From: a phage
DNA length: 64,000 bases
NCBI GenBank assembly: GCA_020241125.1
Contig: GCA_020241125.1_4708.1
Direction: 5' to 3' (one strand)
The position numbers and the translations under genes are program-made. Of this stretch, positions 11,273-56,696 are shown in pieces. Within the stretch, counting starts at the first letter, position 1. Each line of letters begins with the position of its first letter. Below the pieces are notes generated by a model, which was given only the letters and a program-made list of their open reading frames with translations, had not been told where the DNA came from and ran no database searches.

Positions 11273-11296
11273 CACCTAGGTAATGTAAGCGTCAAA
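11273..11296 (-). promoter_or_regulatory. conserved ~31-bp motif, copy 1 (candidate phage promoter)
   Basis: CACCTAGGTAATGTAAGCGTCAAA on plus; lies between hairpin 11322..11370 and start of 9686..11122. Confidence 0.4.
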
Positions 11297-11321
11297 TTTT
11301 TTCTATTCGCAACAATAAACG

Positions 11322-11370
11322 GCATAGAAACCTCCCCCAACCCTTGCGGGCTGAGGGAGGCTGACTTATG
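11322..11370. terminator. GC-rich palindromic hairpin family member downstream of putative MCP gene
   Basis: GGCATAGAAA-CCTCCCCCAACCCTTGCGGGCTGAGGGAGG-CTGACTTATG. Confidence 0.5.
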
Positions 11371-11459
11371 TATCACGGTGCCGGATGAATGTCCGGTGCA
11401 ATGAAACCATCCGCAACGTTGTCGTCAAGAATATCATCCAACGAAGCAGCTACGGTAGT

Positions 11460-13682
11460 TCAGTTAGTCTGAACAGGCAGCTTGATGTTTTCAGTGTAGA
11501 CCTTACGCAGGTTCACAACGTTAATCAGACCCAGCAGCGGGCAGTTGTTAACGAAGCGGCAGCGCGGCTGAACCATGGTTTCTTTAGAAACCTGACCGTT
11601 ACGGGTAACCTGAGCAACAGATACCAGTTCCGGTACATACAGGAACATACCGAAGGTCAGCGGATCCGGAGAACCCTGGATACCACGAGACAGGGTCACG
11701 AAGATCTTATCGCGCAGCATGACGTTCGGGTTATCTACAACTACGAAGTTGAAGCTTACACCAACGGTACGGAAATCACCATCGGTCTGCAGGAACTGCG
11801 GGATGTAGTTGTCAGTTGCTACTACGCAACGCGGTTTCTCATCAGCGTTGGAAGACAGCAGCTGCAGAGCTGGCTGATAACCAGACTCGGAGTACATGCG
11901 GTATGCCATCTCACGAATCACGTTCATGATCGCAGCAGACACTTCAGCACGACGTTCTGCAGTGGTGGTACCCTGAACAGATTTCTCCAGGTCCAGATTG
12001 ATTTCTTCGAACCACGGACGGATCAGGTAACGACCGAAACCTTCGATCTGGATGTCACCGAACTGACGGAAGCGAGAGGTCGCAACCGCTTTCAGTGCGT
12101 CTTTGTAGCTGAACAGTTTCTCAACCATCAGGTTGTCGAAACGTGCGTTAGCAGCTTGGATCAGAACGTCCAGGTCAGCAGCGTTTTCTTCCCAATCCAG
12201 CGGACGAGGAATGGAGAACGGAGCCAGCAGGCCGATTGCGTAACGTTCTTGCTTCATGTTGAAGTCAAGGTGCTTACCGCGCTCACGACGGTTGCTGTTG
12301 TTACGGCGGATACGCAGTTCGTAACCAACCAGTTTGAAGCTCAGGTCTTCAGCCAGTTGTTTGAACTCTTCGCTCTTACGCGGTTGTTCGATGTTGTCCT
12401 GATCAACCAGGCGATACAGTTCAGCGTTAGCGCCGTTAACACGCAGACCGGCTTTCTCTACGTTGGAAGAACCGTAAACTTCGATCGCCAGCTGAGCAGC
12501 AGATTTCGCATCGATGATGTCCTGCAGCGCTTCAGCTTTCGCGCCTTTAACGTCTTTGGTGTTCTCATCAACGAAGATGGAGTGGGTGTCGAACGCCAGG
12601 GTCATTTTGCGGAAGTCGCCTTCCAGGGATTTCTGGAAACCGTTGGTGATCAGACCAGATACGTCGAACGGTACGTAAGAGGTTTTGCTGTGCTTGGTAG
12701 ATTTGATTTCCACCAGGATTTTGGTCAGCGTGATCTGGGCGTCCAGCGCGTCGGTGTTGTCGCTGTAACCGTTAGCCAGGATGCTATCGTCTTCAGCAAT
12801 ACCGATCATGTCGATCAGTTTATCAACAGCCAGGTAAGACGTTTTGTAAGTTACGCCTTTAATTTCGATGTCGCGCGGAGCAACGATAGCTTTGTCAACG
12901 AAGTACTGTGCGTTAGCATCGTCAGCACGATAGATCGGATGCAGATCGGTCACGTCGTTGGACAGAACGTCGTTGTACATGAACGCATCCAGCAGCGGAC
13001 GACGTACCCAATCAGCCGGAGTACCGTCAGCGTTACGACGCAGGTGGTTGAACACCAGCGGACGACGGAAAGATACGTCGTAACCGATCTGGTTCGGAGC
13101 CAGAACGATGGTGTTGTACAGTTCGTTACCCATGCGGCTCAGACGAGAAGCCTTCACGTTGAACACAACGGAGTACGGCATCATGTCACGCAGTTCTTTC
13201 TGGTCGTAGGACAGCTGAACCAGTTCTTCAGATTCGCAACCGCAGGAATCAGCAGCCATCATGACGAAGTTAGAGCTGTCAACTTCACGGCCAGACGGAG
13301 TGGTGCTGATGTTCATGGAACGTGCTTGTTTAGCATATTCTACCGGGTTACCATGAGCCAGCATGATCAGTGCTGCTGCACGAGCCTGCTGTGCGTTCAT
13401 GGTGAACAGCTGTTCTTCAATACGCTGCTTCTCTTCCGGAGTGGTGGTTTCGAAGCCCAGCATGGACAGAACCGGTTCTTCGGCTTTACGGATGTCGCTG
13501 CTGAAGCTCTTAACATCCATTTCGTTAACCAGTTTGTCCATGGATTTGAAATCAACCTTAGAAGCAGATTCCATAGACAGGAAGGTGTTCTCCAGACCTT
13601 TGTCTGCTGGTTTGCTACCATTAGCGGTCAGGAACTGGCGAGTGGCCGCGACCTGTTGGCTAAGAAGGGTTTTATCATTCAT
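11460..13682 (-). CDS. putative major capsid protein (740 aa; size comparable to phiKZ-type MCP)
   Basis: Strong host-optimal codon usage suggesting high expression; AAGGA SD 8 nt upstream of ATG; functional call from size and codon usage only. Confidence 0.5.
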   Translation of the reverse strand: MNDKTLLSQQVAATRQFLTANGSKPADKGLENTFLSMESASKVDFKSMDKLVNEMDVKSFSSDIRKAEEPVLSMLGFETTTPEEKQRIEEQLFTMNAQQARAAALIMLAHGNPVEYAKQARSMNISTTPSGREVDSSNFVMMAADSCGCESEELVQLSYDQKELRDMMPYSVVFNVKASRLSRMGNELYNTIVLAPNQIGYDVSFRRPLVFNHLRRNADGTPADWVRRPLLDAFMYNDVLSNDVTDLHPIYRADDANAQYFVDKAIVAPRDIEIKGVTYKTSYLAVDKLIDMIGIAEDDSILANGYSDNTDALDAQITLTKILVEIKSTKHSKTSYVPFDVSGLITNGFQKSLEGDFRKMTLAFDTHSIFVDENTKDVKGAKAEALQDIIDAKSAAQLAIEVYGSSNVEKAGLRVNGANAELYRLVDQDNIEQPRKSEEFKQLAEDLSFKLVGYELRIRRNNSNRRERGKHLDFNMKQERYAIGLLAPFSIPRPLDWEENAADLDVLIQAANARFDNLMVEKLFSYKDALKAVATSRFRQFGDIQIEGFGRYLIRPWFEEINLDLEKSVQGTTTAERRAEVSAAIMNVIREMAYRMYSESGYQPALQLLSSNADEKPRCVVATDNYIPQFLQTDGDFRTVGVSFNFVVVDNPNVMLRDKIFVTLSRGIQGSPDPLTFGMFLYVPELVSVAQVTRNGQVSKETMVQPRCRFVNNCPLLGLINVVNLRKVYTENIKLPVQTN

Positions 13683-13831
13683 TGAAAGTATCCTTTACAG
13701 AATTAACTTATATAAGTCGGTCGATAGACCATAGCGTACACGCGTGCATGCGCCACTATAGTATCAGTAAACACTTACCGTTATTGAGGTCGTGATACAA
13801 CACTAAAAATGCCGCATAACTTTTCCCTACG

Positions 13832-14452
13832 TCACAAACGACGCAGGCGATAATGGATGGAACGATTGGTGCAATATGAACGGAACAGCGGCAATTGCGC
13901 AACTTCCGCAAGACTCATATTAATTCGCAGGTGTTCAATAACGGCGCTGTAGTTATCAGCAATACGATCGCTCAATAACTCTTCTGCCAATAAAGGAAGA
14001 CAATCGACAACAATCGCGATCACATCCTCATTAACATAACGCACCCGAACACTCAACGGACGTTTGTCTGGGCTGTAAGTTGGATCCGCCAAACGACGTT
14101 CAATATCACGCGGATAGCTCGTCAGTAAATGGTAATAACCATTGTCATAACGATTGATGTACTCACACAGCACATCAACATTCTTCTCTGGCGGCAAACC
14201 TGTTTCGTCATAGTGATACGCAAACATACCACCAAGCAGGTTGTTAAGATGAACCGCAGGGTTCGCTTGTTCGTGTTCTTTCGTGATGAAGAAAGGCACG
14301 TTCTGGGCTGCGAAATAAAAACCTACATCATTGGGCGATAGTATGCCGAAAAGACTTTTAGGGTCTAATAACACCTGTAAGTCATCACGCGCATTTCGAA
14401 TAATCGCGTGTTCTACCCAATTCGGAACGACGAGATATCGGAGTTCCTTCAT
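13832..14452 (-). CDS. hypothetical protein (206 aa)
   Basis: ORF with AGAGG SD 8 nt upstream; divergent from 14492 gene. Confidence 0.7.
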   Translation of the reverse strand: MKELRYLVVPNWVEHAIIRNARDDLQVLLDPKSLFGILSPNDVGFYFAAQNVPFFITKEHEQANPAVHLNNLLGGMFAYHYDETGLPPEKNVDVLCEYINRYDNGYYHLLTSYPRDIERRLADPTYSPDKRPLSVRVRYVNEDVIAIVVDCLPLLAEELLSDRIADNYSAVIEHLRINMSLAEVAQLPLFRSYCTNRSIHYRLRRL

Positions 14453-14491
14453 TATGATTACCTCTTTGCAAGTATCGAAAGGATTGAGTCG

Positions 14492-16102
14492 ATGGACCCA
14501 AAACAGATAGCCATTAAGATTATTACGTTACTGTTTCGTAATGCACAATTGAACCATCCCGATCCCAGTACGATCGAACATGTTAAATCCGTCTTAGATA
14601 AAGTCGAACCCCCGAAAAACCATCTCGCTACAGACGTAGATAGAGAGGTTTTCAACAACCTGATGAATACCATTCATTGGATGTTGGAACAACCATTATC
14701 GGAACCTTTCGATAAACAACAGTTGTTACAAAGGATACGTTTGGATTGCCTTGAACAAAGCAATCTTTACGAGATTCTTGCCGACGGACTGTACGATATC
14801 GAAGACGACGCTCATATCAGTAAGGTCTGTTCACTCTATTACAACGAATTACGTAATCTGATTACCCGTCGTCGTGTTTTCGAAACCTTTAGAAACACGT
14901 ACATGGATATCAGTAACGGGCGACTTGGGGATAAAGAATTTTTCGATGCAATGGCGAATCTGAAATTATCGCTAGACAGTATCGAAATGGATACCGAAAA
15001 TCCCGAAGAGATGTCGTGTATGATTGACGGCTTTATCGCTGACAGCGAAGACGATATCGAGAAAGTCGAACGTATGTTCGTCAAAGCGATGGAACGTAAC
15101 AGTCCTGAAGGTGGATTTGTAACCGGCTGGCAAGGCTTTAATAAAATGTTGGGGTCGGTCGGTGTTTTACGTCGCGGTACCTTAGGACTGATTGGTGCAA
15201 TGCAGCACCGGAACAAGTCAGGCGTGTTGTTAAAACTGTTCACACATCTGGCATTGTACAACAAACCCCATTTCTTTTTCCCGGAGCGAGCAAAGAAAGC
15301 ATTACTGATTCATTTGTCGACAGAAAACGAAGTGGAAGAAAACACGCTTCAGATATACAAGAACATGCGAGAACAGGAAACAGGCGAATATGTCGATATT
15401 CGTAAGATTGACCCTCGCGAGGCATCACGTTATGTGTTGAAGGTGTTCAACGATGCGGGTTTCTCTGTTTGTATGCGTCGTGTTGATGGGATGAGTTATA
15501 AACAACTCGCTAATCTCATCGACCATTTCGAACGCATGGGTTATGAAGTCATGGCGTTGTTCATTGACTATCTGAAAATGTTCTCATCGGAAGGGCTGGA
15601 TAGAAATGGACCGACCGGCGCATGGCTCCAAGAACTCTTCAACAAAGTCCGTAACCTCTGCAGTGTTAAACGTATTTTAGGCATGACCGTACACCAGCTG
15701 TCATCCGATGCGAAGATGCGTGCACGTGATGGCAACGATGAAGAGTTTGTTGACCAAGTCGCAGGTTTAAGTTACTGGGATGGTTGTAAAGGGATTGACC
15801 GTGAGATTGACCTTGAAGTGATTGTTGATATCGTTAAGGAACCGGGCAAACGTCAAAGCTGGCAAGTCTTTGCATTAGGGAAAGACCGTCAACCGGATAA
15901 CGGTTCAACGAAACCTGAAGACAAACACTTCGCAATGCCATTCCAAACCATCGGGATGCTTCCTGATGATTACGGTAAGAAAGCAGTGTATTGCCGCAAG
16001 GTTGGCGGACAACCTGTCTCCGAGGGAGGTAAAGGTCCGTGGAACAAGTTCGATGAAAACGCAGCACCGAGTAATGAATTACAATTTGATTTAGAATTTT
16101 AA
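14492..16102 (+). CDS. DnaB-family helicase-like protein with non-canonical P-loop (536 aa)
   Basis: Start trimmed to ATG 14492 (AAGGA SD); DnaB-like blocks: LGLIGAMQHRNKSG (P-loop position, Gly replaced by Asn), ALFIDYLKMF (Walker B-like IDYL), MTVHQLSSDAKMR, FALGKDRQP. Confidence 0.7.
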   Translation: MDPKQIAIKIITLLFRNAQLNHPDPSTIEHVKSVLDKVEPPKNHLATDVDREVFNNLMNTIHWMLEQPLSEPFDKQQLLQRIRLDCLEQSNLYEILADGLYDIEDDAHISKVCSLYYNELRNLITRRRVFETFRNTYMDISNGRLGDKEFFDAMANLKLSLDSIEMDTENPEEMSCMIDGFIADSEDDIEKVERMFVKAMERNSPEGGFVTGWQGFNKMLGSVGVLRRGTLGLIGAMQHRNKSGVLLKLFTHLALYNKPHFFFPERAKKALLIHLSTENEVEENTLQIYKNMREQETGEYVDIRKIDPREASRYVLKVFNDAGFSVCMRRVDGMSYKQLANLIDHFERMGYEVMALFIDYLKMFSSEGLDRNGPTGAWLQELFNKVRNLCSVKRILGMTVHQLSSDAKMRARDGNDEEFVDQVAGLSYWDGCKGIDREIDLEVIVDIVKEPGKRQSWQVFALGKDRQPDNGSTKPEDKHFAMPFQTIGMLPDDYGKKAVYCRKVGGQPVSEGGKGPWNKFDENAAPSNELQFDLEF

Positions 16103-16106
16103 ACGC

Positions 16107-16119
16107 AAAAAAAAAAAAA
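16107..16119. repeat. A13 homopolymer tract
   Basis: 13 consecutive A immediately after stop of 14492..16102. Confidence 0.9.
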
Positions 16120-16125
16120 GATTGT

Positions 16126-16173
16126 GCGGTTCCCTCCTCCAACCCGTAAGGGAAGGAGGAGGGGTTATGACCG
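16126..16173. terminator. GC-rich palindromic hairpin family member between convergent genes, with adjacent A13 tract
   Basis: CCCTCCTCCAACCCGTAAGGGAAGGAGGAGGG with GTAA tetraloop; A13 at 16107-16119 gives a U13 tract after the hairpin for minus-strand transcripts. Confidence 0.55.
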
Positions 16174-16179
16174 CTTTGA

Positions 16180-16506
16180 TTAACTTATTGTCATGAATTC
16201 ATTAGGTGAAAATTTCCAGCCGTTCTCGGTGAGAAGCGTGTTGAGTTTCGCTGCAACGATAAGCCATGCGTGCATGGCTGTTACATCGTATTGGCGATTC
16301 ACTCGACGTTGGTTTTCGATATTGATTTGCTCCTGTTCAGTGATGTTTGGATAAAGTGCGATAGCGCTAGGTTTACCCAGCGCGCTAGTCATCACCGCCG
16401 TACATTCACTGATAATGTTGTTTAAGTGGTAGTTATACACCGTTCCACGCATGACGCGATGACGGCATTCGATAATAGCGTCGTAAATGATTTCTCGAGT
16501 AATCAT
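16180..16506 (-). CDS. hypothetical protein (108 aa)
   Basis: ORF tightly following upstream gene. Confidence 0.55.
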   Translation of the reverse strand: MITREIIYDAIIECRHRVMRGTVYNYHLNNIISECTAVMTSALGKPSAIALYPNITEQEQINIENQRRVNRQYDVTAMHAWLIVAAKLNTLLTENGWKFSPNEFMTIS

Positions 16507-16512
16507 GATAAT

Positions 16513-17554: not shown

Positions 17555-17629
17555 CGTTTTTACCTTTCTATGTTAGGTGGGTTGCGGATAGAAGAATCAA
17601 TGCATAGACTGATTTAAGTTTGTTAAGGT

Positions 17630-18532
17630 TTACTTAGTCTTCGAGTTACAAGGACTGACATGTTGTTGTACTCGTTGAATCGTATCGTAGTACGGGTTAG
17701 ATTGGTTGAACATGCTGTTGTGTGGATGATAGCCGTATGGCGCATTTTGCCTTGTTGATGAGAAACCTTGTTGAGAAGGACGATTTGAATTAACCGCGAG
17801 TACGTAGTAAACCAAATTTTGACGGTCGAACGTTCCTTCGTTTTTGAAGGTGTCGGCGTAGGTGTTTATCGCTGGAGCGAGTCTATCACCATCGGCGGTA
17901 ATAATTGTACCGTCTGGGTAAACTTCACGAACGACGCACCATGTTCCGATAAGAACGTCTTTGGGCGGCGTATTGCCGTATCCGGTTGTAACGGTAAGGT
18001 AAGTATCGAACCCTTCAGAACAACAAGGATGACGATAGATAGGTCCTGTCATTTCCGTTCTATCGGTATCGTCGCATTTCTCTATCGAGAGCGATGGTGT
18101 GTCGGTTTTGAAATTGTCAAATTCTTTCTTTAAGTCGATTACAGGTTCTTTCGTATAGTACTTCTTGATTGCTTTGACGTAAAGATCAGGAACGGTTGTC
18201 AGCATTCCGTTATACCTGATTCTCAGGTTTTCGAGTAATCCAAAGATACTCGCGCATGCTTGTTCGCGAGGTTTTGTAAGATAAGAGATCCCCCCAGGAA
18301 CGCTGGGATCTTTGAGAAAGAAGATTGCGTTATTGTCGTTGTGCAGTGCGTTGAAGAAAACGATTGATTCGATATATACGGAGCATAGGCTGTCGTTGGC
18401 GTCGTCAGATAACACCCAGATGCACTCATCGGTCGTCTTGTTTAAAAGTTCTGTTTTGTCCACCAAACGTTGTTTCATTGCGAGGAAATGTGCCTGTTGT
18501 TCAGCGGATAATTCACGATAAATAGTGGTCAT
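17630..18532 (-). CDS. hypothetical protein, paralog A of an HPxC/YPDG pair (300 aa)
   Basis: Start trimmed to ATG 18532 (AAGGAG 6 nt upstream); shares PIYxHPxC, DxYLTxTxG, GxWxxxREVYPDGxIxT with 18618..19391. Confidence 0.75.
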   Translation of the reverse strand: MTTIYRELSAEQQAHFLAMKQRLVDKTELLNKTTDECIWVLSDDANDSLCSVYIESIVFFNALHNDNNAIFFLKDPSVPGGISYLTKPREQACASIFGLLENLRIRYNGMLTTVPDLYVKAIKKYYTKEPVIDLKKEFDNFKTDTPSLSIEKCDDTDRTEMTGPIYRHPCCSEGFDTYLTVTTGYGNTPPKDVLIGTWCVVREVYPDGTIITADGDRLAPAINTYADTFKNEGTFDRQNLVYYVLAVNSNRPSQQGFSSTRQNAPYGYHPHNSMFNQSNPYYDTIQRVQQHVSPCNSKTK

Positions 18533-18617
18533 GTTGAGCTCCTTGATTACGATAAGGATGATTGCGGTTTTGTGATGCTGGTAGGGCCCTAAACAAAGGA
18601 GCCCTACCAATATTGGG

Positions 18618-19391
18618 TTACTCAGGATCGGCGTAGAAATGGTGAGGATAGCCGGAGTACGATCCCGCGTTACCGGCTATGGATTCTTTCTGGGAATCGA
18701 CGACGAGCGCATAGAACTGTCGGGAATTTGTTAGCGTTGAGAAATAAGCGGAAAGGACTTTTTCATTCAACGCATCGCAAGGTAGACAGGTGCGACCGCA
18801 AAACGTCACGATACGGCCGTCGGGATAGATCTCACGAATCATTCTCCACTCACCGATATCCACTGGTGATGGCGCTGCTACACCACCTGTTATCGTTAAG
18901 TAACGATCGTACGTGGTATGGCATTCAGGATGAATATAGATCGGCTTGTTCGTTTCGACAGGTTCCGAAGTATCTCGACGACTAAGAAGCTCAACGACTT
19001 CAAGATAAATCGTTGGTAGATCGCGGAGAATACCGGTGCTACGACGTTTCTTTGTGATTCGCGGACGAATCTCGTTGAGAGCGTATTCGAGCTTACGTTC
19101 AGCTTCGTACGCATCGAGTTTTATCAGGCGACCCGGTTCATCGGAATGATCCTGAGTTACGTAAACGAAATACGCGTTGCCTTTTGCAGCGTGAAAGATT
19201 CGAGCGACCTTAAATGTTTCTACGGTACGATACCCAAGGCGCGATTGATTTTCCACAGGAGAAAATATCCAATGTCGTCCTTCGTCCGCCTCAACAATTT
19301 CGTTGAAACTATCCGTTTGTTCTGGGACCTGGTAGTCAGCCATTAATGTATCAAGAGCGTCGTCAGCCAGTTTGATGTAAATATCTGTCAT
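18618..19391 (-). CDS. hypothetical protein, paralog B of an HPxC/YPDG pair (257 aa)
   Basis: ORF-track N-terminus (GTG 19604) reads through the hairpin and motif; ATG 19391 has GAGGA 7 nt upstream. Confidence 0.75.
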   Translation of the reverse strand: MTDIYIKLADDALDTLMADYQVPEQTDSFNEIVEADEGRHWIFSPVENQSRLGYRTVETFKVARIFHAAKGNAYFVYVTQDHSDEPGRLIKLDAYEAERKLEYALNEIRPRITKKRRSTGILRDLPTIYLEVVELLSRRDTSEPVETNKPIYIHPECHTTYDRYLTITGGVAAPSPVDIGEWRMIREIYPDGRIVTFCGRTCLPCDALNEKVLSAYFSTLTNSRQFYALVVDSQKESIAGNAGSYSGYPHHFYADPE

Positions 19392-19447
19392 GTTTGTATC
19401 CTCGGCTATTAAGAGAAATTTACAGTGATAACAGTAACCGTTGTTAT

Positions 19448-19478
19448 CACCTAGGTAATGTAGTCGCGAAATAAACTG
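19448..19478 (-). promoter_or_regulatory. conserved ~31-bp motif, copy 2 (candidate phage promoter)
   Basis: CACCTAGGTAATGTAGTCGCGAAATAAACTG; between hairpin 19490..19531 and ATG 19391. Confidence 0.45.
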
Positions 19479-19489
19479 GGTTAGACAGT

Positions 19490-19531
19490 ATATGACCCTC
19501 TCCCAACCCGTAAGGGAAGGGAGAGGGAATA
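19490..19531. terminator. GC-rich palindromic hairpin family member
   Basis: CCCTCTCCCAACCCGTAAGGGAAGGGAGAGGG directly after stop of 19532..20899. Confidence 0.5.
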
Positions 19532-20899
19532 TTAAACGGTTGGACGAACAGTATTGTCTTTTTCTGGTGCAATCCATAACGTGACTGTACCATGGCATGT
19601 CCACTGCGGTTCACGCACAGAAGAACCTGCCATTGTAACAGCGCAATCGGTACGCATGATAACCCCGTATGCTTCGCAGAGATTGTTATCCTGCATCCAC
19701 ACAACTTTAGCGGGCATGCCAGGATACAACAAATCCATGTTTGCGTATTCCCACACCAACTGCATCGTTCTACCGCGTAATCCGGCAGTATTGCTTAATT
19801 CACGCCATCGGTTATCGGTTACGCGTCCCATCCCTTTCGCCACTTTCACGTTATCGCTACGTTCTTCAGTTACGTACTCGCTAACGTTTACGGTACGACT
19901 GATGATCGTATCACCCCCTTTTGATAATGTCATTCCCTGACTCATCTGACTTGCCGAAACAAAACGCCCACCCGCATTACCTAACAACGAAGCCGCGTTA
20001 TTGATGTCGCTTACCGACGCCCCTCTCGTACACGCAATTTCCACGTATTTGTCACGATTGATCCAGGTCTTGTCCATGCCCGGAAACATATCGGCAGGAT
20101 AGTTGTAAAAGATCGCCGTGCGCCGACCGTCAGAGAAACGGGTTTCGTCGTATAAGGGGTAGATATACAGATACGGGGATTGATAATAACAACCGACGTC
20201 AGCTGAATAAATACCGACCTGGTTCTGTATTTTATCTACGAGATCCATCGCATTGGTACCGTGTGGAAGAATAAGCAACTTGAATGGGTTGTCGTTATTC
20301 GGTGCAACAATATCCACACCCTGCATTTTGAATCCGGTGTCAGCTTCAACCGCAGAAAGTATCTTGCTGAATTCAAGTCGCAGTACATCCAGCACTTTCG
20401 ACCCAGTATAGTTCTCACCGGTTTCTGATTGCATGAAGCTTTCAAGAACAGGATCGAACAGTTGAAATTGAAGATCGACCATTTGTTCGTAGTCTTTCTT
20501 CGAAGAATCGGTTGCGGTACGTTCGTCGGTAGCGGACATACGACTGTCTACGGTTGTTAAACAAACCGCTCGGTAGACGTAAGCTTGTGCGGCATCGTCT
20601 ACGGTTTGGCGTTGTCCGCGCATCAGGCTGTACGCCTGCACGATGATGCGCATTTTAAGTTGTTGTTGGTACGGTAGAATGTATTTTCCGTAACTGCCGG
20701 GCGGGAACTTTACAGAGATATAGAGTTCATCTCCAGCGTTACGTTCATAGTCTCGATACGTGTGGACTTGAGTCACTAAAGGAACAGACACCGTCATTGA
20801 CGGCGTGATTAATTCCGCGGTGACTTTATACGCAACAGCAACTGCTTCCTGCGCAAATGTACCGATATACCGTCCTAACGGCGTCTGTTTGTAATCCAT
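19532..20899 (-). CDS. hypothetical virion-type protein (455 aa)
   Basis: ORF; stop of upstream gene 2 nt before ATG. Confidence 0.8.
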   Translation of the reverse strand: MDYKQTPLGRYIGTFAQEAVAVAYKVTAELITPSMTVSVPLVTQVHTYRDYERNAGDELYISVKFPPGSYGKYILPYQQQLKMRIIVQAYSLMRGQRQTVDDAAQAYVYRAVCLTTVDSRMSATDERTATDSSKKDYEQMVDLQFQLFDPVLESFMQSETGENYTGSKVLDVLRLEFSKILSAVEADTGFKMQGVDIVAPNNDNPFKLLILPHGTNAMDLVDKIQNQVGIYSADVGCYYQSPYLYIYPLYDETRFSDGRRTAIFYNYPADMFPGMDKTWINRDKYVEIACTRGASVSDINNAASLLGNAGGRFVSASQMSQGMTLSKGGDTIISRTVNVSEYVTEERSDNVKVAKGMGRVTDNRWRELSNTAGLRGRTMQLVWEYANMDLLYPGMPAKVVWMQDNNLCEAYGVIMRTDCAVTMAGSSVREPQWTCHGTVTLWIAPEKDNTVRPTV

Positions 20900-24792: not shown

Positions 24793-24830
24793 AGCATAAA
24801 GCCCACCCCGAAGGGCGGGCTGTTTATGCG
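24793..24830. terminator. GC-rich palindromic hairpin family member
   Basis: AGCATAAA-GCCCACCCCGAAGGGCGGGC-TGTTTATGCG. Confidence 0.45.
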
Positions 24831-30770: not shown

Positions 30771-32060
30771 TTATGCTTTTTCGGTTACAGCGTCGAAGTA
30801 TTTCGCTGCAGCAAATACAGCATCCGCATATTGGCGTATCGAAGCGCGAAGAATCTTGGTTGACAATACAGTACTTAAGCGCGCCATTTCAGAAACCGCG
30901 CTTACATAAGGACGGATGGTTTCACGATCGGCTTCAGGCAGCTTGTCGAGCATATCACCCCACTTCGTTTTGATTTTCATGCCGTTGAGTTTAGCGGTAC
31001 GCTCCACAGAACCGGCCAAAGCTTCAACCATGTGGAAATAAGAGGAGTCTATCGTACGGAACACGTTAAGATAGGAAGTCAATGCACCTTTCAGTTCGTT
31101 ATCGTCTTTGAAAATGTTTGCGTTCTCTATCTCACCGGTCACCGTCGTCTCGGCTTCAACCCGAATATTTTTCACCAACGTATAGGCTTTAATCGCATCG
31201 TGTTCGTTTTCGACGGCGTCGAGACCTTGAATAACGAATTCCTTCCCACCGCTCTCTGGAAAAACAACTTTATTCAGAGCTGATTTGATCGCCAGCAGGT
31301 ATTTGTCTAAGATAGACGGAAGCAGTGTGAGGTCAGTGAGGTCTGCGACCTTTTTATTGATATCAGCCACATGCTTAAACAGTGAATCCGTCCCGCTTGC
31401 GCTTGCAGCGAGTTGTTCGATATGCTTGCTTGCAAACACGGCATTCGCTGATTTAGCATTAGGGAACATATTGACCATATTTCCAGTGGGCTTATCCAAC
31501 TGTTTGATATGGCGCTCACCTTTATTCACAGCGGTTGCGATCTTGACAATTTTGTTGTATGCAACGACCAGGTTCTTGAACAACATCTGGAACAGTTTGA
31601 ACAGTTGCTCAGCGATATTCGCAATGATTACCCAAACTGCGTATAACGCTTGTGCTGCGCGTTCTTTAAAGCCTTCCAGCACAATAGCTTGCCCTTCCAC
31701 CAAACGATCGTCAGCTTGGAACATGTCTTCATCGGACATCCCCAGGTTAGCCGCTGACGTCGAAGCAATCTGACGGATAAGGGCGATGTCGCTCGCACGT
31801 GCTTCAGGGATCGTAGGTGCGATCATGTACGCGGTATCTTCCAGCGTTGCTGAGGTACGCACCGCAATTTCAGCCAGTTCGCTGGATTCGTCGATCGTCT
31901 CGTCGGTGCGTCGAACCACCAACTCAACTTCGTCCTCTTCGATTTCTGCGTTGGGATCATTTTGCTCCGCTGGAATTGCCGCAAGAAGATCTTCGGCGCT
32001 GAGCAGTGCGAGTTCGAATGCGTTTTTATTGACGTTATCAAAAAGAGAGATGCGGGCCAT
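30771..32060 (-). CDS. hypothetical protein, paralog family member (429 aa)
   Basis: ORF; ARASDIALIRQIASTSAANLGMSDED...VEGQAIVLEGFKE module. Confidence 0.8.
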   Translation of the reverse strand: MARISLFDNVNKNAFELALLSAEDLLAAIPAEQNDPNAEIEEDEVELVVRRTDETIDESSELAEIAVRTSATLEDTAYMIAPTIPEARASDIALIRQIASTSAANLGMSDEDMFQADDRLVEGQAIVLEGFKERAAQALYAVWVIIANIAEQLFKLFQMLFKNLVVAYNKIVKIATAVNKGERHIKQLDKPTGNMVNMFPNAKSANAVFASKHIEQLAASASGTDSLFKHVADINKKVADLTDLTLLPSILDKYLLAIKSALNKVVFPESGGKEFVIQGLDAVENEHDAIKAYTLVKNIRVEAETTVTGEIENANIFKDDNELKGALTSYLNVFRTIDSSYFHMVEALAGSVERTAKLNGMKIKTKWGDMLDKLPEADRETIRPYVSAVSEMARLSTVLSTKILRASIRQYADAVFAAAKYFDAVTEKA

Positions 32061-49399: not shown

Positions 49400-51151
49400 A
49401 TGAGCGAACAAGAACGAAAACCTAAGAAGAAACTGCTCGGTATTCAATGTCGACACATCAGCTATAACGAAGCGAACGATGGCAGCAAGAACGACCTCAT
49501 GATCGCAAAAGAGATCATGTTCTTCGATGATAATACGCAAGCGACGAACCTTCGCTTCTTCGAGAATTACAAACGTCCGTTTTGGGTGACGGTAGAGAGT
49601 AAACGTAAGAACAAATATAAAAAGGAAAGCGAGAAGCTCTCGCATGTGCGTCGCTACGATGTCCGCCAAAGCGAACTGGTTGAAAAGATCAGCTCGGTAC
49701 TTTATAAAAGACGTGCTGACGATAACACCCGTTTACAGCAGCTTGCACGGAGTCCATACCTCTATGGAACGGACGTTAGCGCCAGCTGTTATTTAAAAAC
49801 CCAGTACAACACAAAATGGCCGGAATACGTCGATAAATTACCCGCTTCCATTGCCTGTTTCGATATCGAAACCGACGTTGTCCACGGACACGGTAAGATC
49901 GTTTGTATGTCTATTACAATGGGATACAATGCGATACTTTGCTATACCAAGGACTTCGTTGGTCATATTCCGAATGCCATTGAGAAAACCCATGAGAAGA
50001 TTCGATATTACCTGGCCGAACGTCTGAATACCAAAGAAGATCCCCACGCATTCGAAAAATATCAGTACGATGTTCGAATCGTAGAAAGCCCGGCACAAGC
50101 GGTCATCCAATGCATGCAGAAGGTTCACGAATGGCAGCCGGATTATCTCCTTGGCTGGAATATCGCGTTCGATATTCCGCGCATGCTCCAGGCACTGAAC
50201 GAGGAAGGGTATCGTCCCGAGGATGTTTTCTCCGATCCCCGTATACCACCTAAATATCGTATTGCTCGCTGGGTACCACCGAAGACCGACAAGGTATCTG
50301 CTTCAGGTCGTAAAACCAACCTTACCCTTGAGCAAACCTGGCCGATGTTTTATACGATGGCTACGTATCAGGTTATGGATGCGATGTGTGGCTATAAGTT
50401 CGTTCGTTTAGGAAGACCGGATGAAGGACGCTATTCACTCGATGCGGTGTTAGAGCGAAATAAATGCCATACGAAATTAAAAGCTATTCCTGGTACAGAG
50501 GGGTTCACGGAGCTTGCCTGGCACGAAGAGATGCAAACGAACCATCAAATCGACTACGGCGTATATAACCTTTGGGATAACCAGGGTATTGAGGCGTTGG
50601 ACCAGAAAACAAAAGACTATTCGATGACCATCCCTATCCGTTTAGCGGCGTCGGATTTGAAAGATTTCAGTTCTAACCCTAAACGTATCTGCGATAAACT
50701 TTTCTTCGTTTATCTTAACCGTGGGGAAGTCATGGGATGTACCGCTGACGACATGACCCAGGAAGAAGATAAGTGGGTTATCTCACGAGCTGGACATATC
50801 GTCACATTACCATGCGATCTCATGGCTGACAACGGCATTCATCTCTTCTGGGATATGCCGAACCTGAGAAGTTATATCCGTCTATTCGTTGCAGACCTTG
50901 ACATTAGCAGTTCATACCCGAATGGGCAGATCCTGTTGAATCTATCCAGAGCGTGTGTTTTTCGCGAGCTCTCACGCATTGAGGGCGTCTCTGACTATCA
51001 ATTCAGGAAGTTAGGTATCAACTTTATTACCGGAGGTAAAACGAACGCTGTAGACTTCTGTAGAATCGTTTATAAAGCACCATCGATGTTTGAACTTTTA
51101 GAACATTTCGATGCAACGCGTCCAAAAGAGGAAGCGCGGACCATCGAATGA
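49400..51151 (+). CDS. family-B DNA polymerase N-terminal fragment: 3'-5' exonuclease domain plus polymerase motif A (583 aa)
   Basis: Exo I ACFDIETD, Exo II YLLGWNIAFDIPRML, Exo III YSLDAVLER, motif A DISSSYPN, degenerate motif B-like KLGINFITGG; ORF ends before any motif C (YGDTDS). Confidence 0.75.
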   Translation: MSEQERKPKKKLLGIQCRHISYNEANDGSKNDLMIAKEIMFFDDNTQATNLRFFENYKRPFWVTVESKRKNKYKKESEKLSHVRRYDVRQSELVEKISSVLYKRRADDNTRLQQLARSPYLYGTDVSASCYLKTQYNTKWPEYVDKLPASIACFDIETDVVHGHGKIVCMSITMGYNAILCYTKDFVGHIPNAIEKTHEKIRYYLAERLNTKEDPHAFEKYQYDVRIVESPAQAVIQCMQKVHEWQPDYLLGWNIAFDIPRMLQALNEEGYRPEDVFSDPRIPPKYRIARWVPPKTDKVSASGRKTNLTLEQTWPMFYTMATYQVMDAMCGYKFVRLGRPDEGRYSLDAVLERNKCHTKLKAIPGTEGFTELAWHEEMQTNHQIDYGVYNLWDNQGIEALDQKTKDYSMTIPIRLAASDLKDFSSNPKRICDKLFFVYLNRGEVMGCTADDMTQEEDKWVISRAGHIVTLPCDLMADNGIHLFWDMPNLRSYIRLFVADLDISSSYPNGQILLNLSRACVFRELSRIEGVSDYQFRKLGINFITGGKTNAVDFCRIVYKAPSMFELLEHFDATRPKEEARTIE

Positions 51152-51190
51152 TTCAAGTAGGTTGATCCTCGCTTAACAAAAAAGAAAACA

Positions 51191-51245
51191 CATGCGAAGC
51201 CCCTCCCCCTGGCGGAAGCCGGAGGGAGGGGTGAGGTTTATGCGC
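51191..51245. terminator. GC-rich palindromic hairpin family member between convergent genes
   Basis: CCCCTCCCCCTGGCGGAAGCCGGAGGGAGGGG with GGAA loop. Confidence 0.5.
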
Positions 51246-51723: not shown

Positions 51724-51793
51724 TGAATGCTCCTAGTGGTTATGTCGATTGATCGATGTATTGATTTATGTTTGAAGGTGTTGTTCACCTTCG

Positions 51794-52258
51794 TTAGATA
51801 TCGTCATCCGTGGTGCCGTAGGACATATGCTGAATTAATTTTCTCGGCTCGATGAAAATACGACATGTGATAAACACATCGGGATCGTATTGCTCCACGC
51901 AACGTCCGAAGGTTTGTTTTGCGGCTTGGCGCATCGATGTTATTTCCTGATCGTTCATCGCATTATCGAATTCGATGTTGATCGCGATTTTATCGGGAAA
52001 TAAATAGATAAAGTAATCGCCGCTGATACCACCATCATCAAAGTGACGTTCATTGTAGCACTGGACGAGCTTACCTTCACGTTCTTTCTGATACCACCCA
52101 AGGATACTATTAAGACCTCTGTCCACGCATTCGAATGCTTGAGTAATAACATCCTCAACGACGGATGCAGGCGTGGGACCATTGAATAGACGATCTAAGC
52201 GCTTTTTCATCGATTTGGTTTTCTCGTTCATGATTTCTTTTCCTGTTATAATCGGCAT
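51794..52258 (-). CDS. hypothetical small protein (154 aa; alternative start ATG 52231)
   Basis: First ATG lies inside the palindromic flank of hairpin 52255..52300; internal ATG 52231 has AGGAA SD. Confidence 0.65.
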   Translation of the reverse strand: MPIITGKEIMNEKTKSMKKRLDRLFNGPTPASVVEDVITQAFECVDRGLNSILGWYQKEREGKLVQCYNERHFDDGGISGDYFIYLFPDKIAINIEFDNAMNDQEITSMRQAAKQTFGRCVEQYDPDVFITCRIFIEPRKLIQHMSYGTTDDDI

Positions 52259-52300
52259 ACAACCCTTCCCCGGCCTGATGGCTAGGGAAGGGGCTATGCT
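52255..52300. terminator. GC-rich palindromic hairpin family member, intercistronic
   Basis: GCATACAA-CCCTTCCCCGGCCTGATGGCTAGGGAAGGGG-CTATGC; overlaps first ATG of 51794..52258. Confidence 0.45.
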
Positions 52301-52306
52301 ACGTTG

Positions 52307-52705
52307 TTATGCTTCGCAATCAGCTGAAGGCGTCGCGCCTTTCTTACCAGCGATACGCCAAATCCGACACGCTGGGTAATGGTTAACCTCTAGAGAGCAA
52401 GGAATGTTATATTTCTCTTCCAGCGCATAAAGACATTTCGTTAGCTGCTCCAGCGCGTTCTCGTCGTGTCGTAACGCGTGGTGGCCTAATCGATGTTGGT
52501 CGTTCTTTATATACGCCTCGAAGAGAACATGTTGGCGATGTACGCTGACGTTTACAGCCTCGAGTATAGCTTGGTCGAGCATACGACTAAAGCACATCAA
52601 CGAGTCAGATACGTTTTCTCGCTTAACCAGATCGATCATGGCGGGAATATACGAATGGTCGATGTTATCGATGACCGCTTTAGCGACGGAATCAGCAACG
52701 TTCAT
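52307..52705 (-). CDS. hypothetical small protein (132 aa), tandem paralog of 52743..53138
   Basis: Shares VKAVxDNIDH and EEKYNIPxSLEVN blocks with the next gene. Confidence 0.7.
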   Translation of the reverse strand: MNVADSVAKAVIDNIDHSYIPAMIDLVKRENVSDSLMCFSRMLDQAILEAVNVSVHRQHVLFEAYIKNDQHRLGHHALRHDENALEQLTKCLYALEEKYNIPCSLEVNHYPACRIWRIAGKKGATPSADCEA

Positions 52706-52742
52706 CTTTTTTAATCCCTAGTTTGTTATTGATCACGTATAT

Positions 52743-53138
52743 TTACTCTTTGACGTCAGTTGTCGTTTCGACATGCTTCTCACTACTGACGTACCAGAGC
52801 AGGTACGCTGGGAAAAGATTGACCTCTAAGCTAAATGGGATATTGTATTTCTCTTCCATTTTACAGAGATGTTCTTTAAGTAAATTTCTCGCGTCTCTGT
52901 CACCACGAACAGAGTGCCAGTCTAGTTCTTTGTTCTCCTTTACCAGGACCTCTACGATGATACGTTGCTCGTGAACCTCGGTTTTCACAGTGAAAAGTAA
53001 ATCGCTGCTATCCAAACGGGTAAAACGAATGTATGAACCAGGTGTTTTTTCTTGTTTAATAATATCGATCATGGTAGAAATGCGCGGATGATCGATGTTG
53101 TCGTTAACAGCTTTAACGATGGATTCTACAATGCTCAT
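52743..53138 (-). CDS. hypothetical small protein (131 aa), tandem paralog of 52307..52705
   Basis: Shares conserved blocks with previous gene. Confidence 0.7.
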   Translation of the reverse strand: MSIVESIVKAVNDNIDHPRISTMIDIIKQEKTPGSYIRFTRLDSSDLLFTVKTEVHEQRIIVEVLVKENKELDWHSVRGDRDARNLLKEHLCKMEEKYNIPFSLEVNLFPAYLLWYVSSEKHVETTTDVKE

Positions 53139-53170
53139 TTTTTATCCTTAATGTTATCGATTTGGAAATA

Positions 53171-53938
53171 TTACTTATTTTTGCTTTCTTTATAGACAGT
53201 TGTTACCCACGATGGGAAAGCCGGATGGAAACAGAGCGTGAACGTAACTGTCGTATCGTATTTAAACGCACAGTTCACTAACCGGGTATCTAACGTTTTC
53301 CTTAATCCGTCATCATCGTTATCGATGATGGTCATATCTCTTAATATCCCAAGCACGTTAACGCCATCGGGTGTCTGGGTTACGACAAGTCGTCGTAATG
53401 GCCCGCATGTATAGTCACGTACAAATCCTTTCTTCGGGTCCGATACCCTGTTTAACGCATCGTGATTTTTGATGAATTCATCGGCGATACAATAGGTTTG
53501 TTCCCTTGCTTTATCGGGATCGTATTCTGCTAATAGTTCCTTCGTGTCGAATGTTATCGCGTTATTAGCATTCGATTCAGAAGGGAAACATAAAACTAAA
53601 CGAACAGGGTATTCATATTGATCTGTTCTCGTTTCGAAAGCATTAGCTAAACACGGCTTGTATGCCTTTGCGTCGACATTGTCCAAACACGGATGCAATA
53701 ATGCGTGAATAACGGCACCATCGTCAGTTAAACCGAATTCCAGAAATTGTGTTTCATCGACATCCGTGACGGTTTTCTGAAGATACGCTTTACCGTTAAC
53801 GATATCGGTATCCCACATATCGTCGTTTAACGATTCTTCAAACTTATCGAATATATGGTTTACGAAATTGATGAGTTCATCAATACGACACTGTTGGTTG
53901 AATTCGATTAATCGTTGAACTTTATCTCTGATAGACAT
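53171..53938 (-). CDS. hypothetical protein (255 aa)
   Basis: ORF. Confidence 0.7.
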   Translation of the reverse strand: MSIRDKVQRLIEFNQQCRIDELINFVNHIFDKFEESLNDDMWDTDIVNGKAYLQKTVTDVDETQFLEFGLTDDGAVIHALLHPCLDNVDAKAYKPCLANAFETRTDQYEYPVRLVLCFPSESNANNAITFDTKELLAEYDPDKAREQTYCIADEFIKNHDALNRVSDPKKGFVRDYTCGPLRRLVVTQTPDGVNVLGILRDMTIIDNDDDGLRKTLDTRLVNCAFKYDTTVTFTLCFHPAFPSWVTTVYKESKNK

Positions 53939-53940
53939 GA

Positions 53941-54405
53941 TTACTCCTTAGTTCCTTCTTCGTTGGACGTATATTCCACATAGTGGAATTCACGGCCGTC
54001 GATAAACTTGAGTGCTACTGTAATAGGGAAATCACACGGCATAGCGGATTTCGTAAATGCGTTATCAGCAACATCAGATAACCGACGTATGGTATTCTCC
54101 CCTTTTGCTATGAATGGGAATTTAATGTTAATAAGGATACGGTGTTTGTAAATAGTAAAGACGACAGTGCTGTCGAAATGTACCCCAGTTAAAGTCATTG
54201 TTGGGATACGTTTTACAACGGAGAAATGTGTCCCGTCAATATCGCTACTTCCCACTGACCATTCATCGGAATTGCGTAGACTTTTCTTGAGGATATCAAC
54301 GCTTTGCGTGACCACCTCAGCAACTTGTACGACGTACGTGTCTTTATGCATGTCGAAAAGTTCGTTGACGTTAGATTTGAATGAATAAACCGTTGCCATT
54401 ATCAT
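53941..54405 (-). CDS. hypothetical small protein (154 aa)
   Basis: ORF; C-terminal HYVEYTSNEEG resembles neighbours. Confidence 0.65.
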   Translation of the reverse strand: MIMATVYSFKSNVNELFDMHKDTYVVQVAEVVTQSVDILKKSLRNSDEWSVGSSDIDGTHFSVVKRIPTMTLTGVHFDSTVVFTIYKHRILINIKFPFIAKGENTIRRLSDVADNAFTKSAMPCDFPITVALKFIDGREFHYVEYTSNEEGTKE

Positions 54406-54860
54406 ACCTCTTTTTTCATCTTCATCGGAACAGCGAGTGCAGCACTCGCTGTTCCATTATCCGGCTCATATTCCAATGTAACGAGATTGCAGCCGTCCGA
54501 TAATTCATAATCGATCGCTAGGGGGAACGAGATACCGTGCGACTTTATGCATTTACCAAATGTCTCGTTGGCTGTATACATTAGAAGTTGCTTTGCGGCA
54601 AGCCCGTTTACGCTGAAAGGTAATTGTGCTGTCGCAGCGATACGATTATTGTAAACTCTGATATCGGTGATATCTACAATCGTAGCATTGCCGTGTTGTG
54701 TTGATGGAACGGATAGGTTGTAGAAGTAAGGTTCGGAGTCGGAATCGGGCTCGTTAAATAATTCCCAGCACCCGTCCTCCTGCAATCTTACTTCGAGTAT
54801 TTCAAAGCTTTTAATTATCGATTCTACCAGCTGCTCACCGTAAGAATCCCATGTCGTCAT
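54402..54860 (-). CDS. hypothetical small protein (152 aa)
   Basis: ORF; C-terminal LEYEPDNG motif. Confidence 0.65.
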   Translation of the reverse strand: MTTWDSYGEQLVESIIKSFEILEVRLQEDGCWELFNEPDSDSEPYFYNLSVPSTQHGNATIVDITDIRVYNNRIAATAQLPFSVNGLAAKQLLMYTANETFGKCIKSHGISFPLAIDYELSDGCNLVTLEYEPDNGTASAALAVPMKMKKEV

Positions 54861-54931
54861 TTTTTAACACCTTCGACACCTTTTAACCGATACGTGTCCC
54901 ATCTAACAAGGGACACGATATCGTTGATTAA

Positions 54932-55432
54932 TTACTCTTCTGTGTTTTCATTGTCAGGATCGTAGTGGAATTCGAACAGCCCTGAACCGTCGTGTCCGTT
55001 GATTGTTAGTATAACGGGCATATCGAATCCTCGGACACGCGAATGAAAACATTGTGCTAATTTTAGTTTGGCGTATGCCGCTACTTCATTGACAGCAATA
55101 CACGATTCACCTGTTATACTCAGTATAACGTCGATACTAACAATGTTGTCGTGCAACGCAAAACGCCAGCGATCGATACGATTATTATCTTTATCGGTTG
55201 TCTCGTTTACGAGATAGACTTTATCGTCAACCGACAAAGCGGGACTCCAGCAACGATCGTTTATTAAATTCGCCTGGAGTTTTAGTATCGTCTGATCGAT
55301 AATATCCCAACACGTAACCAGCGTGGTGTCAGGCACTGAGTAGAGAAGGGCGTGCACTTTATCCTTTATTTTAAGTGCTTCCGCAGGACGTCCGCAAATA
55401 CCATGCATTTCGACTTTCTTATTCATATTCAC
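54932..55432 (-). CDS. hypothetical small protein (166 aa)
   Basis: ORF; C-terminal FEFHYDPDNEN motif. Confidence 0.65.
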   Translation of the reverse strand: MNMNKKVEMHGICGRPAEALKIKDKVHALLYSVPDTTLVTCWDIIDQTILKLQANLINDRCWSPALSVDDKVYLVNETTDKDNNRIDRWRFALHDNIVSIDVILSITGESCIAVNEVAAYAKLKLAQCFHSRVRGFDMPVILTINGHDGSGLFEFHYDPDNENTEE

Positions 55433-55470
55433 TTCTTTCTTAATCTAAATGTTAGTTGGGGGTGGGATGC

Positions 55471-56103
55471 TTACATGCTTTCTAGCATATTGACGATCAT
55501 GGAACCCATACCGAAACTCGGTCTCTCACCGATATACTCAGCAAGCTGGCGATGGACGTCTTTTGGATTTCCTTCTTCACCGTCAGCATCGATGTAGACT
55601 GAAAAAGAAACCGAATCGGAATCCACGCTGATAACCAGACGACGTTCATTGCGTTCCTTGAGCGTGTCGACGATAGATGCTTTCAGTACCGGGATCGCAT
55701 TCATCGCGTGCAAGATATCTCCATCGGGTTTCGGCAGATCGATCTTTTCTTTCAGGTCGATATTGATGTTGGTTACAATTGGGTTGAGGTCGACCTTGAC
55801 GTAATCGTTAGGGTACATGCGAATAATCGCACGATCGATATCTGAACCGTAAAAGTCAACACGTGGCTTTAACACTTCTTTGTTTGGATCCATGTTTTCA
55901 TCCATACCCGCCTGCAAGAAACGTTCTACGTTATCCAGTTCACGATAAACTAACGCTTCGATTTCTTTCAGATAGTTGGCTGCGGTTTCATGTTCTTTAC
56001 GCAGCTCGTCTTTAAGGAGCTGTACGGTGGTTTCACTGGAACGAATGCTGTTCGCGAATTGGGTAATTGACATATCGAATTCCTTAAATTCTCTTGAGTT
56101 CAA
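55471..56103 (-). CDS. hypothetical protein (210 aa)
   Basis: ORF. Confidence 0.7.
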   Translation of the reverse strand: MNSREFKEFDMSITQFANSIRSSETTVQLLKDELRKEHETAANYLKEIEALVYRELDNVERFLQAGMDENMDPNKEVLKPRVDFYGSDIDRAIIRMYPNDYVKVDLNPIVTNINIDLKEKIDLPKPDGDILHAMNAIPVLKASIVDTLKERNERRLVISVDSDSVSFSVYIDADGEEGNPKDVHRQLAEYIGERPSFGMGSMIVNMLESM

Positions 56104-56171
56104 TTAATGATGAAAAGCTGTAAAAAAAGGTGGGGCGAACCCCACCAAAACGTCAGACACACGCGGGAAAA

Positions 56172-56597
56172 TTAATTCAGTGATGCATATAAGGCATAAC
56201 GACTGTAGATCTCAACCGCCGGTCCGTTATGCGTTAACAGACCGTCTCGGCTGTAATACTGGAAAAATGAATAACGTTTGTCGAAGTGATAAACAAAAGC
56301 AATGTCTTTGCCGTCAAAACCTGTGATGCGTGGTCTGTTTTTATCTAGCAATGCTTTGACTTTTAACAGTGTTGCCGCACGTGCTTTAACGTTAGGGATC
56401 AAGCCATCACAATCGATATAAACAGTGTAACCTGTTTCAGATGTTGCGACGGTCGTATTGCGATTGACGCGGAAGATTTTTGTTTCGTATGTACTATCTT
56501 CAAGAATTGGGTTTTGTTTTTCGTATTTTCGTTTACGCAGAAATTCTACAACGGTGATATAGTTAGCGGTAATATGCCCGGTTATAGCTTGTAACAT
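56172..56597 (-). CDS. hypothetical protein (141 aa), preceded by conserved 31-bp motif
   Basis: ORF with AAGGA SD 8 nt upstream. Confidence 0.7.
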   Translation of the reverse strand: MLQAITGHITANYITVVEFLRKRKYEKQNPILEDSTYETKIFRVNRNTTVATSETGYTVYIDCDGLIPNVKARAATLLKVKALLDKNRPRITGFDGKDIAFVYHFDKRYSFFQYYSRDGLLTHNGPAVEIYSRYALYASLN

Positions 56598-56665
56598 CTT
56601 GACATCCTTTTATATTGGATTGGTTGCAATTGTCTTAAATAGATGATAAGATATTTTGCTCTTAT

Positions 56666-56696
56666 CACTAAGGTAATGTAGTCGCGAAATAAACTG
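56666..56696 (-). promoter_or_regulatory. conserved ~31-bp motif, copy 3 (candidate phage promoter)
   Basis: CACTAAGGTAATGTAGTCGCGAAATAAACTG; between hairpin 56719..56770 and ATG 56597. Confidence 0.45.

Follow-up and report, generated by a model that had tools for sequence, protein, structure and literature searches.

Introduction

Every jumbo phage that encodes RNA polymerases of its own carries a conserved A/T-rich motif, centred near −10, before its early operons, and this motif has been attributed to the virion RNA polymerase (PMC7598289). Here we compare with these elements a motif found three times in a 64,000-nucleotide stretch of phage DNA (contig GCA_020241125.1_4708.1 of NCBI GenBank assembly GCA_020241125.1, one strand; hereafter the whole stretch is called the window), at positions 11273, 19448 and 56666, each time upstream of a minus-strand gene. 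The window shares 97.6% identity with Escherichia phage vB_EcoM_Goslar, a nucleus-forming jumbo phage of the Chimalliviridae whose genome measures 237 kb. Their alignment covers Goslar positions 31979–94037 and is interrupted by a few insertions and deletions.

The early promoter of phage AR9 reads AAATATATATTAT-(6N)-G+1, with starts likewise six nucleotides past the element in phiKZ and phiR1-37, and early transcription in AR9 is independent of protein synthesis (PMC5312081). Consensus sequences have been published (PMC7058600) for N1M2 (TBYAWWWWWTTTCARRYAKATATTATYWAAGTGWA), 201phi2-1 (...TATATTACDWHDGTG), phiKZ (TATATTAC), OBP and EL (WTTTYAAACCTACATTATY, ending in ...CTACATTATY). In phiKZ the early-promoter motif has been placed at the primary start site of PHIKZ054 (PMC8244752), and a review describes chmA and the genes of the non-virion polymerase as transcribed first, by the virion polymerase.

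The Motif Family and Its Distribution

We take the three motifs to be early promoters of a Goslar-like chimallivirus, of the phiKZ type and of the class attributed to the virion RNA polymerase, and we put the probability of this reading at roughly 0.87. The motif itself is real and probably functional. All three copies lie on the minus strand, which is also the strand of their downstream genes, and are placed as follows:

11272..11308, minus strand: predicted early promoter copy 1, about −35 to +2, core ACATTACCT at 11286–11278, predicted start G at 11273
19447..19483, minus strand: predicted early promoter copy 2, core ACATTACCT at 19461–19453, predicted start G at 19448, 34.0 bits
56665..56701, minus strand: predicted early promoter copy 3, core ACATTACCT at 56679–56671, predicted start G at 56666, 34.3 bits

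On the minus strand the copies read aaaaaaTTTGACGCTTACATTACCTAGGTGAcag (copy 1), agtttaTTTCGCGACTACATTACCTAGGTGAtaa (copy 2) and agtttaTTTCGCGACTACATTACCTTAGTGAtaa (copy 3). The original prediction, made from the letters of the window, had described a 31-bp motif occurring three times, with 28–29 of 31 positions identical between copies 2 and 3. A search with the degenerate 31-mer gave matches at 19448–19478 and 56666–56696, against 0 expected from shuffled sequences, and these two copies are identical at 29 of 31 positions, inside the claimed range, with a likeness that extends to 37 of 40 nucleotides. Copy 1 (11273) was not recovered by the 31-mer at up to 3 mismatches; its first 15 nucleotides, CACCTAGGTAATGTA, are exact, and it agrees with the 31-mer at 22 of 31 positions overall by our own count, which leaves the 31-bp description valid for copies 2 and 3 only. 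The conserved unit is about 40 bp long and has a TAYATTACYT core, the 31-mer covering only a two-member sub-family of it.

The family was first traced by a search with the 15-nucleotide core, allowing up to 3 mismatches, which gave related sites in many Goslar intergenic regions. A weight matrix covering positions −12 to +15, where position 0 is the A of AYATTAC, finds 14 sites in Goslar with scores of 22.6–38.6 bits (best other site 12.1) and exactly 3 sites in the window with scores of 33–36 bits (best other site 8.5). As a check on circularity, the matrix was rebuilt from 11 Goslar sites, the homologues of the three window copies being excluded. With this matrix the window copies still score 34–37 bits (36.7 for copy 1), compared with 9.2 bits for the next window site and a maximum of 19.6 bits in 30 shuffled windows. 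Since no site above 9.2 bits occurs elsewhere in the window, there is no copy in window coding sequence.

In Goslar, all 14 sites read in the direction of the gene that follows, on the minus strand, and the distance from predicted start to start codon is 25–205 nt. The genes behind them are:

Goslar, minus strand: gp004, gp021, gp040, gp046, gp075, gp105, gp159, gp165 (RNA polymerase subunit), gp175, gp182, chmA (gp189), gp210, gp221 and gp236

There are, in other words, several intergenic, co-oriented copies before early genes such as that of chimallin. A search of the whole genome had been proposed along with the original prediction, with many copies inside coding sequence named as the sign of a neutral repeat, and none of the 14 Goslar sites is in substantial coding sequence. 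The site at Goslar 49731, the homologue of copy 2, overlaps only the annotated 62-codon open reading frame (ORF) gp047. This ORF (Goslar 49584–49772, approximately window 19400–19540) overlaps the terminator as well as the early promoter, and its beginning lies before the predicted start of transcription; its annotation as a gene is probably mistaken. The proposal of a small co-regulated gene set survives as far as the gene set is concerned, and fails in the set being small or local, as 14 sites are spread over the Goslar genome.

The consensus of the family is W5-TTTCACGRCT-AYATTACYT-WNNT-G-A. Positions T−1, A0, A2, T3, A5, C6 and T8 are invariant in the 14 Goslar and 3 window sites, and G13, exactly 6 nt past ATTAC, is invariant in all 14 Goslar sites. 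In the count matrix of the 14 Goslar sites, as in the window copies, the −20 element TTCAC (−8 to −5) and the start element GTGA(A) (+11 to +14) are mutually reverse-complementary and flank TAYATTAC.

Copy 3 is kept in three related phage genomes despite diverging flanks, and among related genomes the pattern is that of a promoter kept while flanking sequence is replaced. Searches for divergent relatives with gp040 and gp075 as queries returned near-identical genomes only. In four more distant Goslar-like genomes from IMG/VR (loci L016, L020, L026 and L028; 214–229 kb) the same promoter, TTTCACGTCTATATTACTTGGGTGAT, stands before genes that have no Goslar homologue, so that a deep footprint of the three loci was not obtainable.

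The 37/40 identity of copies 2 and 3 is greater than the family consensus demands, and a copy-2-type terminator stands upstream of copy 3 in two relatives, indicating cassette exchange; both facts would suit an account in which recent duplication or recombination left the copies behind as neutral repeats that have no role themselves. We give this account almost no credence. The 14 members have common invariant positions but unrelated flanks, their placement outside substantial coding sequence goes together with a uniform orientation relative to the downstream gene, and phages of E. coli and of Pseudomonas, with chimallins that share only some 25% identity, both keep the element.

Comparison with phiKZ-Like Early Promoters

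The identity of the family as a Goslar-type early promoter rests on its alignment with the published consensuses and with phiKZ sequence, the presence of sites before chmA and gp165, and the recovery of the family by a matrix derived from phiKZ. As regards the alignment, the TAYATTACYT core is a conserved A/T-rich element of about 10 nt near −10, and the Goslar type shares the core (T)AYATTA(C/T) and the G six bases downstream with the early promoters of phiKZ, 201phi2-1, OBP, N1M2, EL and AR9. Additional conservation near −20 and −30 is seen in the TTTCACGRCT block and the A/T-rich run upstream of it, and phiKZ-like early promoters have in common with them a TTTCA/TTTGA block near −20 and an A/T-rich region near −30. 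In phiKZ, TTTGAGATC plus an A run is comparable with these upstream blocks, and conservation at −10, −20 and −30 has been reported for 201phi2-1 and phiKZ.

The sequences upstream of the two chimallin genes, which we read directly, are gaaaaaaaTTTGAGATTTATATTACTAAATTGA for phiKZ gp054 and gaaaaaaaTTTCAGGGTTATATTACCTAGGTGA for Goslar chmA. With the start placed at the G six bases past the core, each of the two leaders measures 66 nt. A matrix built from six phiKZ sites, when run on Goslar, gave family members as 8 of its top 9 matches, and its best match in the window is copy 1 (19.6 bits). Multiple intergenic copies per genome, one of them before chimallin, are also a feature common to phiKZ-like phages and Goslar. 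Phage multisubunit RNA polymerases, in a virion and a non-virion set, are encoded in the genome; in the Goslar annotation several genes are labelled RNA polymerase beta subunit, and the window has one such ORF:

58040–59341: RNA polymerase beta-type subunit ORF (match to phrog_2962, 6e-106)

From the homology with phiKZ and AR9 we infer the polymerase involved, the exact start site and the early timing in this phage. The motifs would be recognised by a multisubunit RNA polymerase that is carried in the virion and enters the cell along with the DNA, and initiation would need neither host RNA polymerase nor new protein synthesis. The promoter would span about 40 bp, with an A/T-rich region near −30, TTTCACGRCT near −20, TAYATTACYT centred near −10 and TGA at the start, and transcription would begin at the invariant G that follows the TAYATTAC core by six bases, that is at 11273, 19448 and 56666 as predicted from this spacing; the corresponding Goslar positions are 43252, 49718 and 86691.

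The Goslar type also has features of its own. Its −20 block is more G+C-rich than in other phiKZ-like phages, and its 14 sites compare with 28–32 in phiKZ, 41 in AR9, and 6 mapped plus more MAST-predicted sites in 201phi2-1. Several points weigh against the assignment to virion-polymerase early promoters. Only 14 sites are present in Goslar, yet at 5 min 175 of its 249 genes can be detected, so other early promoters or extensive read-through must exist. The C in place of T at the second core position, seen in 6 of the 14 Goslar sites and in all three window copies, occurs among the published consensuses only in that of EL. The unit that would start at copy 1 lies directly behind the gene of the major head protein, a late gene, and neither the first nor the third gene of the unit has a known function. 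Finally, the literature searched contains no in vitro binding of this sequence by a virion polymerase.

The position of that unit after the major head protein gene, together with the fact that phiKZ chimallin has an early and a middle promoter, raises the question of whether the motif could instead be a promoter of the non-virion polymerase, of the middle or late class rather than the early one. We consider this very unlikely, as middle promoters of phiKZ consist of TACT near −22 after an A-rich repeat and late ones of only TATG at the start, neither of which resembles the motif, and the motif fits the early class base for base.

The original prediction had noted a poor match to sigma-70, which is borne out: a scan for sigma-70 promoters (−35 TTGACA, −10 TATAAT, 16–18 bp apart) gave no minus-strand site at any of the three copies. 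Between 11000 and 19800 of the window, sigma-70-like matches are rarer than in shuffled sequence (5 vs. 13.1, standard deviation 3.6), which fits a phage that makes no use of the RNA polymerase of its host. A promoter of the T7/SP6 type was considered for the resemblance of CCTAGGTGAC to the SP6 promoter, ATTTAGGTGACACTATAG, and was dropped; the phage is a relative of Goslar, none of whose annotated RNA polymerase genes is single-subunit, and the phiKZ-type alignment explains the whole motif.

Phage N4 offers a parallel in its injected virion RNA polymerase, which transcribes early genes, and in the hairpins near its promoters. The N4 polymerase consists of a single subunit and recognises a small hairpin in the DNA that lies upstream of the start. 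Unlike in N4, the upstream hairpin here stands over 40 nt away and is a probable terminator, and the other inverted repeat, which has no conserved sequence, is placed at or after the start.

The class of element is already known, and the understanding of jumbo-phage transcription is unchanged by these results. The literature searched holds no published list or description of Goslar promoters. What the analysis provides is a map of promoter sites, 14 in Goslar and 3 in the window, each with a predicted start, for a chimallivirus of E. coli that now serves as a genetic model.

Probable Terminators Upstream of the Three Copies

Each copy was expected to lie downstream of a palindromic hairpin and 56–150 nt upstream of a minus-strand start, and this layout is confirmed, with measured distances from motif end to start codon of 151 nt (ATG at 11122), 57 nt (ATG at 19391) and 69 nt (ATG at 56597). 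The hairpins, all of them very stable, are:

11319..11362, minus strand: predicted terminator before copy 1, after the major head protein gene; hairpin 11362–11329 plus tail TTTCTATGCCGT; −31.3 kcal/mol, z −5.5
19485..19527, minus strand: predicted terminator before copy 2; hairpin 19527–19496 plus tail TCATATACTGT; −27.0 kcal/mol, z −4.8
56716..56766, minus strand: predicted terminator before copy 3; hairpin 56766–56727 plus tail TTCTATGCTGT; −29.8 kcal/mol, z −3.3

They are of one type, a CCCTCC/GGGAGG stem followed by (C/T)TATGCYGT, of which there are about 25 in Goslar and 8 in the window. A conserved terminator of phiKZ has been described as BCCYCCCCHWWDGGGRRGGBYTTATKYYGT (PMC10914365), and the intrinsic terminators of phiKZ and 201phi2-1 match the hairpins upstream of the three copies in stem composition and in tail. 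Because the tail is not a T run, the hairpins escape a simple scan for terminators of the E. coli type. The tail (11319–11328, 19485–19495 and 56716–56726; also at 24800, 57226 and 63440) contains TATG, the only conserved element of phiKZ late promoters (PMC7598289).

It is also important to consider whether the hairpin belongs to the promoter. The tail occurs within about 50 nt upstream of only 4 of the 14 Goslar promoters, with a spacing from tail to core of 42–45 nt at the sites homologous to the three window copies and 50 nt at chmA. The order of hairpin, motif and gene, which had been put forward as a constant arrangement, is found at all three window copies but is not general; it belongs to early units embedded behind other units and not to the promoter. 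By their sequence, the hairpins appear to be independent terminators of the chimallivirus type, serving the preceding co-directional units rather than forming part of the promoter. They would close the preceding unit and so insulate the early one.

Inverted Repeats at the Predicted Start

A second kind of inverted repeat is found at the predicted starts of two window copies:

19425..19450, minus strand: inverted repeat at the predicted start of copy 2, GTGATAACA / TGTTATCAC, in RNA GAUAACA/UGUUAUC from +1; likewise in the Goslar homologue
56645..56666, minus strand: stem-loop from the predicted +1 of copy 3, GAUAAGA / UCUUAUC

Copy 1 has no start-anchored stem. A stem was counted when at least 7 contiguous base pairs, with G-U allowed, began between −2 and +1 relative to the predicted start. 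Such a stem is present in 7 of the 14 Goslar promoters, compared with 11.5% of control sites (genomic TGA sites), for a binomial p of approximately 4e-4 in a test that was devised after the pattern had been noticed. The stem sequences differ from promoter to promoter. At copy 3 of UViG 3300045988 the stem is retained but encloses a different loop sequence. Upstream of the gp075 homologue in IMGVR_UViG_3300011560_000001 (locus L044), a 53-nt insertion lies between CCTTA and GTGA, with the original stem-loop retained downstream; the insertion has its own GTGA and inverted repeats, so that the start element is duplicated. No known structured RNA was found, with 0 Rfam matches at gathering score in the whole window.

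These repeats bear on the other half of the original proposal, which spoke of a phage-specific promoter or operator. An operator, at which a DNA-binding regulator of the phage would turn a gene set on or off while transcription came from another, unrecognised promoter, has in its favour the length of the conserved block (about 40 bp), the inverted repeats overlapping the predicted start at many sites and the reverse complementarity of TTCAC at −20 and GTGAA at the start. The start-site repeats, however, vary by site (GATAAGA, GATAACAG, GAAGC, GATGT) and, differing in sequence, cannot be the site of one protein, while the TAYATTAC core is without dyad symmetry. Furthermore, in phiKZ, 201phi2-1 and AR9 primary 5' ends have been mapped about 10 bp downstream of the same element, and the sigma-70 scan detected no alternative promoter nearby. 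We therefore regard an operator as extremely improbable and retain the promoter part of the proposal, given the match to phiKZ-like early promoters.

For the start-site stem-loop of these early promoters, which is possibly a new detail, protection of the 5' end would be the simplest reading. A 5'-terminal stem-loop protects E. coli mRNAs from 5'-end-dependent decay. It is conceivable, though we think it rather unlikely, that the stem-loop, kept in position and variable in sequence, is functional in the early cassette and that, together with the evenly spaced terminator, it makes a portable, insulated cassette and a recombination point for accessory early genes. If this were true, the stem-loop could protect the 5' end from such decay or mark mRNAs that are made in the early infection vesicle, and the cassette would be analogous to the PeSLs of T4-like phages, but for a phage polymerase.

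Likeness to PeSLs and Cassette Exchange

The PeSLs combine a terminator stem-loop with an early promoter and mediate modular gene shuffling (PMC2839356, PMC4122927). At the Goslar homologues of the three window copies, a terminator stem-loop and an early promoter form the same kind of composite; the hairpin stands directly before the promoter in PeSLs and in Goslar-type cassettes, in the latter at the near-constant spacing given above, and variable accessory genes are adjacent in both. The difference lies in the promoter, which is of the host sigma-70 early kind in PeSLs and of the phiKZ early type in Goslar, where no sigma-70 match was found.

Exchange at such a cassette is visible in the two relatives L044 and UViG 3300045988, in which the gene upstream of copy 3 is replaced and a copy-2-type hairpin stands in place of the original one, before an unchanged tail and promoter. 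This is the only exchange junction seen, and it falls inside the copy-3 cassette. A 1.8-kb difference behind copy 2, made up of two paralogous genes, A and B, has the cassette on one side only.

Predicted Early Units

The window genes that are probably early are those from gp040 to gp038, the two accessory paralogs and gp075. The first unit would start at 11273 and carry the homologues of gp040, gp039 and gp038, ending at gp038 or gp037. The second, from 19448, would carry paralogs B and A and then the homologues of gp046, gp045 and gp044, and the third, from 56666, would consist of gp075 alone. The corresponding features are:

11460–13682: major head protein ORF
9686..11122, minus strand: gp040 homologue, first gene of unit 1, 478 aa, 99% identical to Goslar gp040
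7850–9649, minus strand: gp039 'polymerase' homologue (phrog_2943 'polymerase', 1e-119)
5257–7815, minus strand: gp038 homologue
18618..19391, minus strand: paralog B, first gene of unit 2, 257 aa
17630–18610, minus strand: paralog A
56129..56597, minus strand: gp075 homologue (gene 56172–56597, 141 aa) plus canonical terminator (56146–56129), predicted single-gene unit

The 151-nt leader of unit 1 has no unusual structure (z 0.46). Paralogs A and B are approximately 26–30% identical to each other and are missing in Goslar (window 17613–19387), where all that is left of B is its ribosome-binding site and its ATG with a few codons, in a remnant of 26 codons. Searches of Pfam and PHROGs gave no match for gp040, gp038, paralogs A and B, gp046 or gp075, gp039 being the sole one with a match.

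Other Differences between the Window and Goslar

Two further differences were seen. On the minus strand, window 52315–53983 (about 1.67 kb) has no Goslar counterpart and contains three small ORFs at 52307–52705, 52743–53138 and 53171–53938. On the plus strand, the DNA polymerase gene of the window is a single 583-aa ORF (49400–51151), where Goslar annotates a 499-aa polymerase fragment. Relative to window 50892–50915, Goslar has about 1.8 kb of additional sequence (81182–82967) with the NUMOD1/HNH endonuclease gp069, which suggests a polymorphism in which a homing endonuclease or intron is either present or absent.

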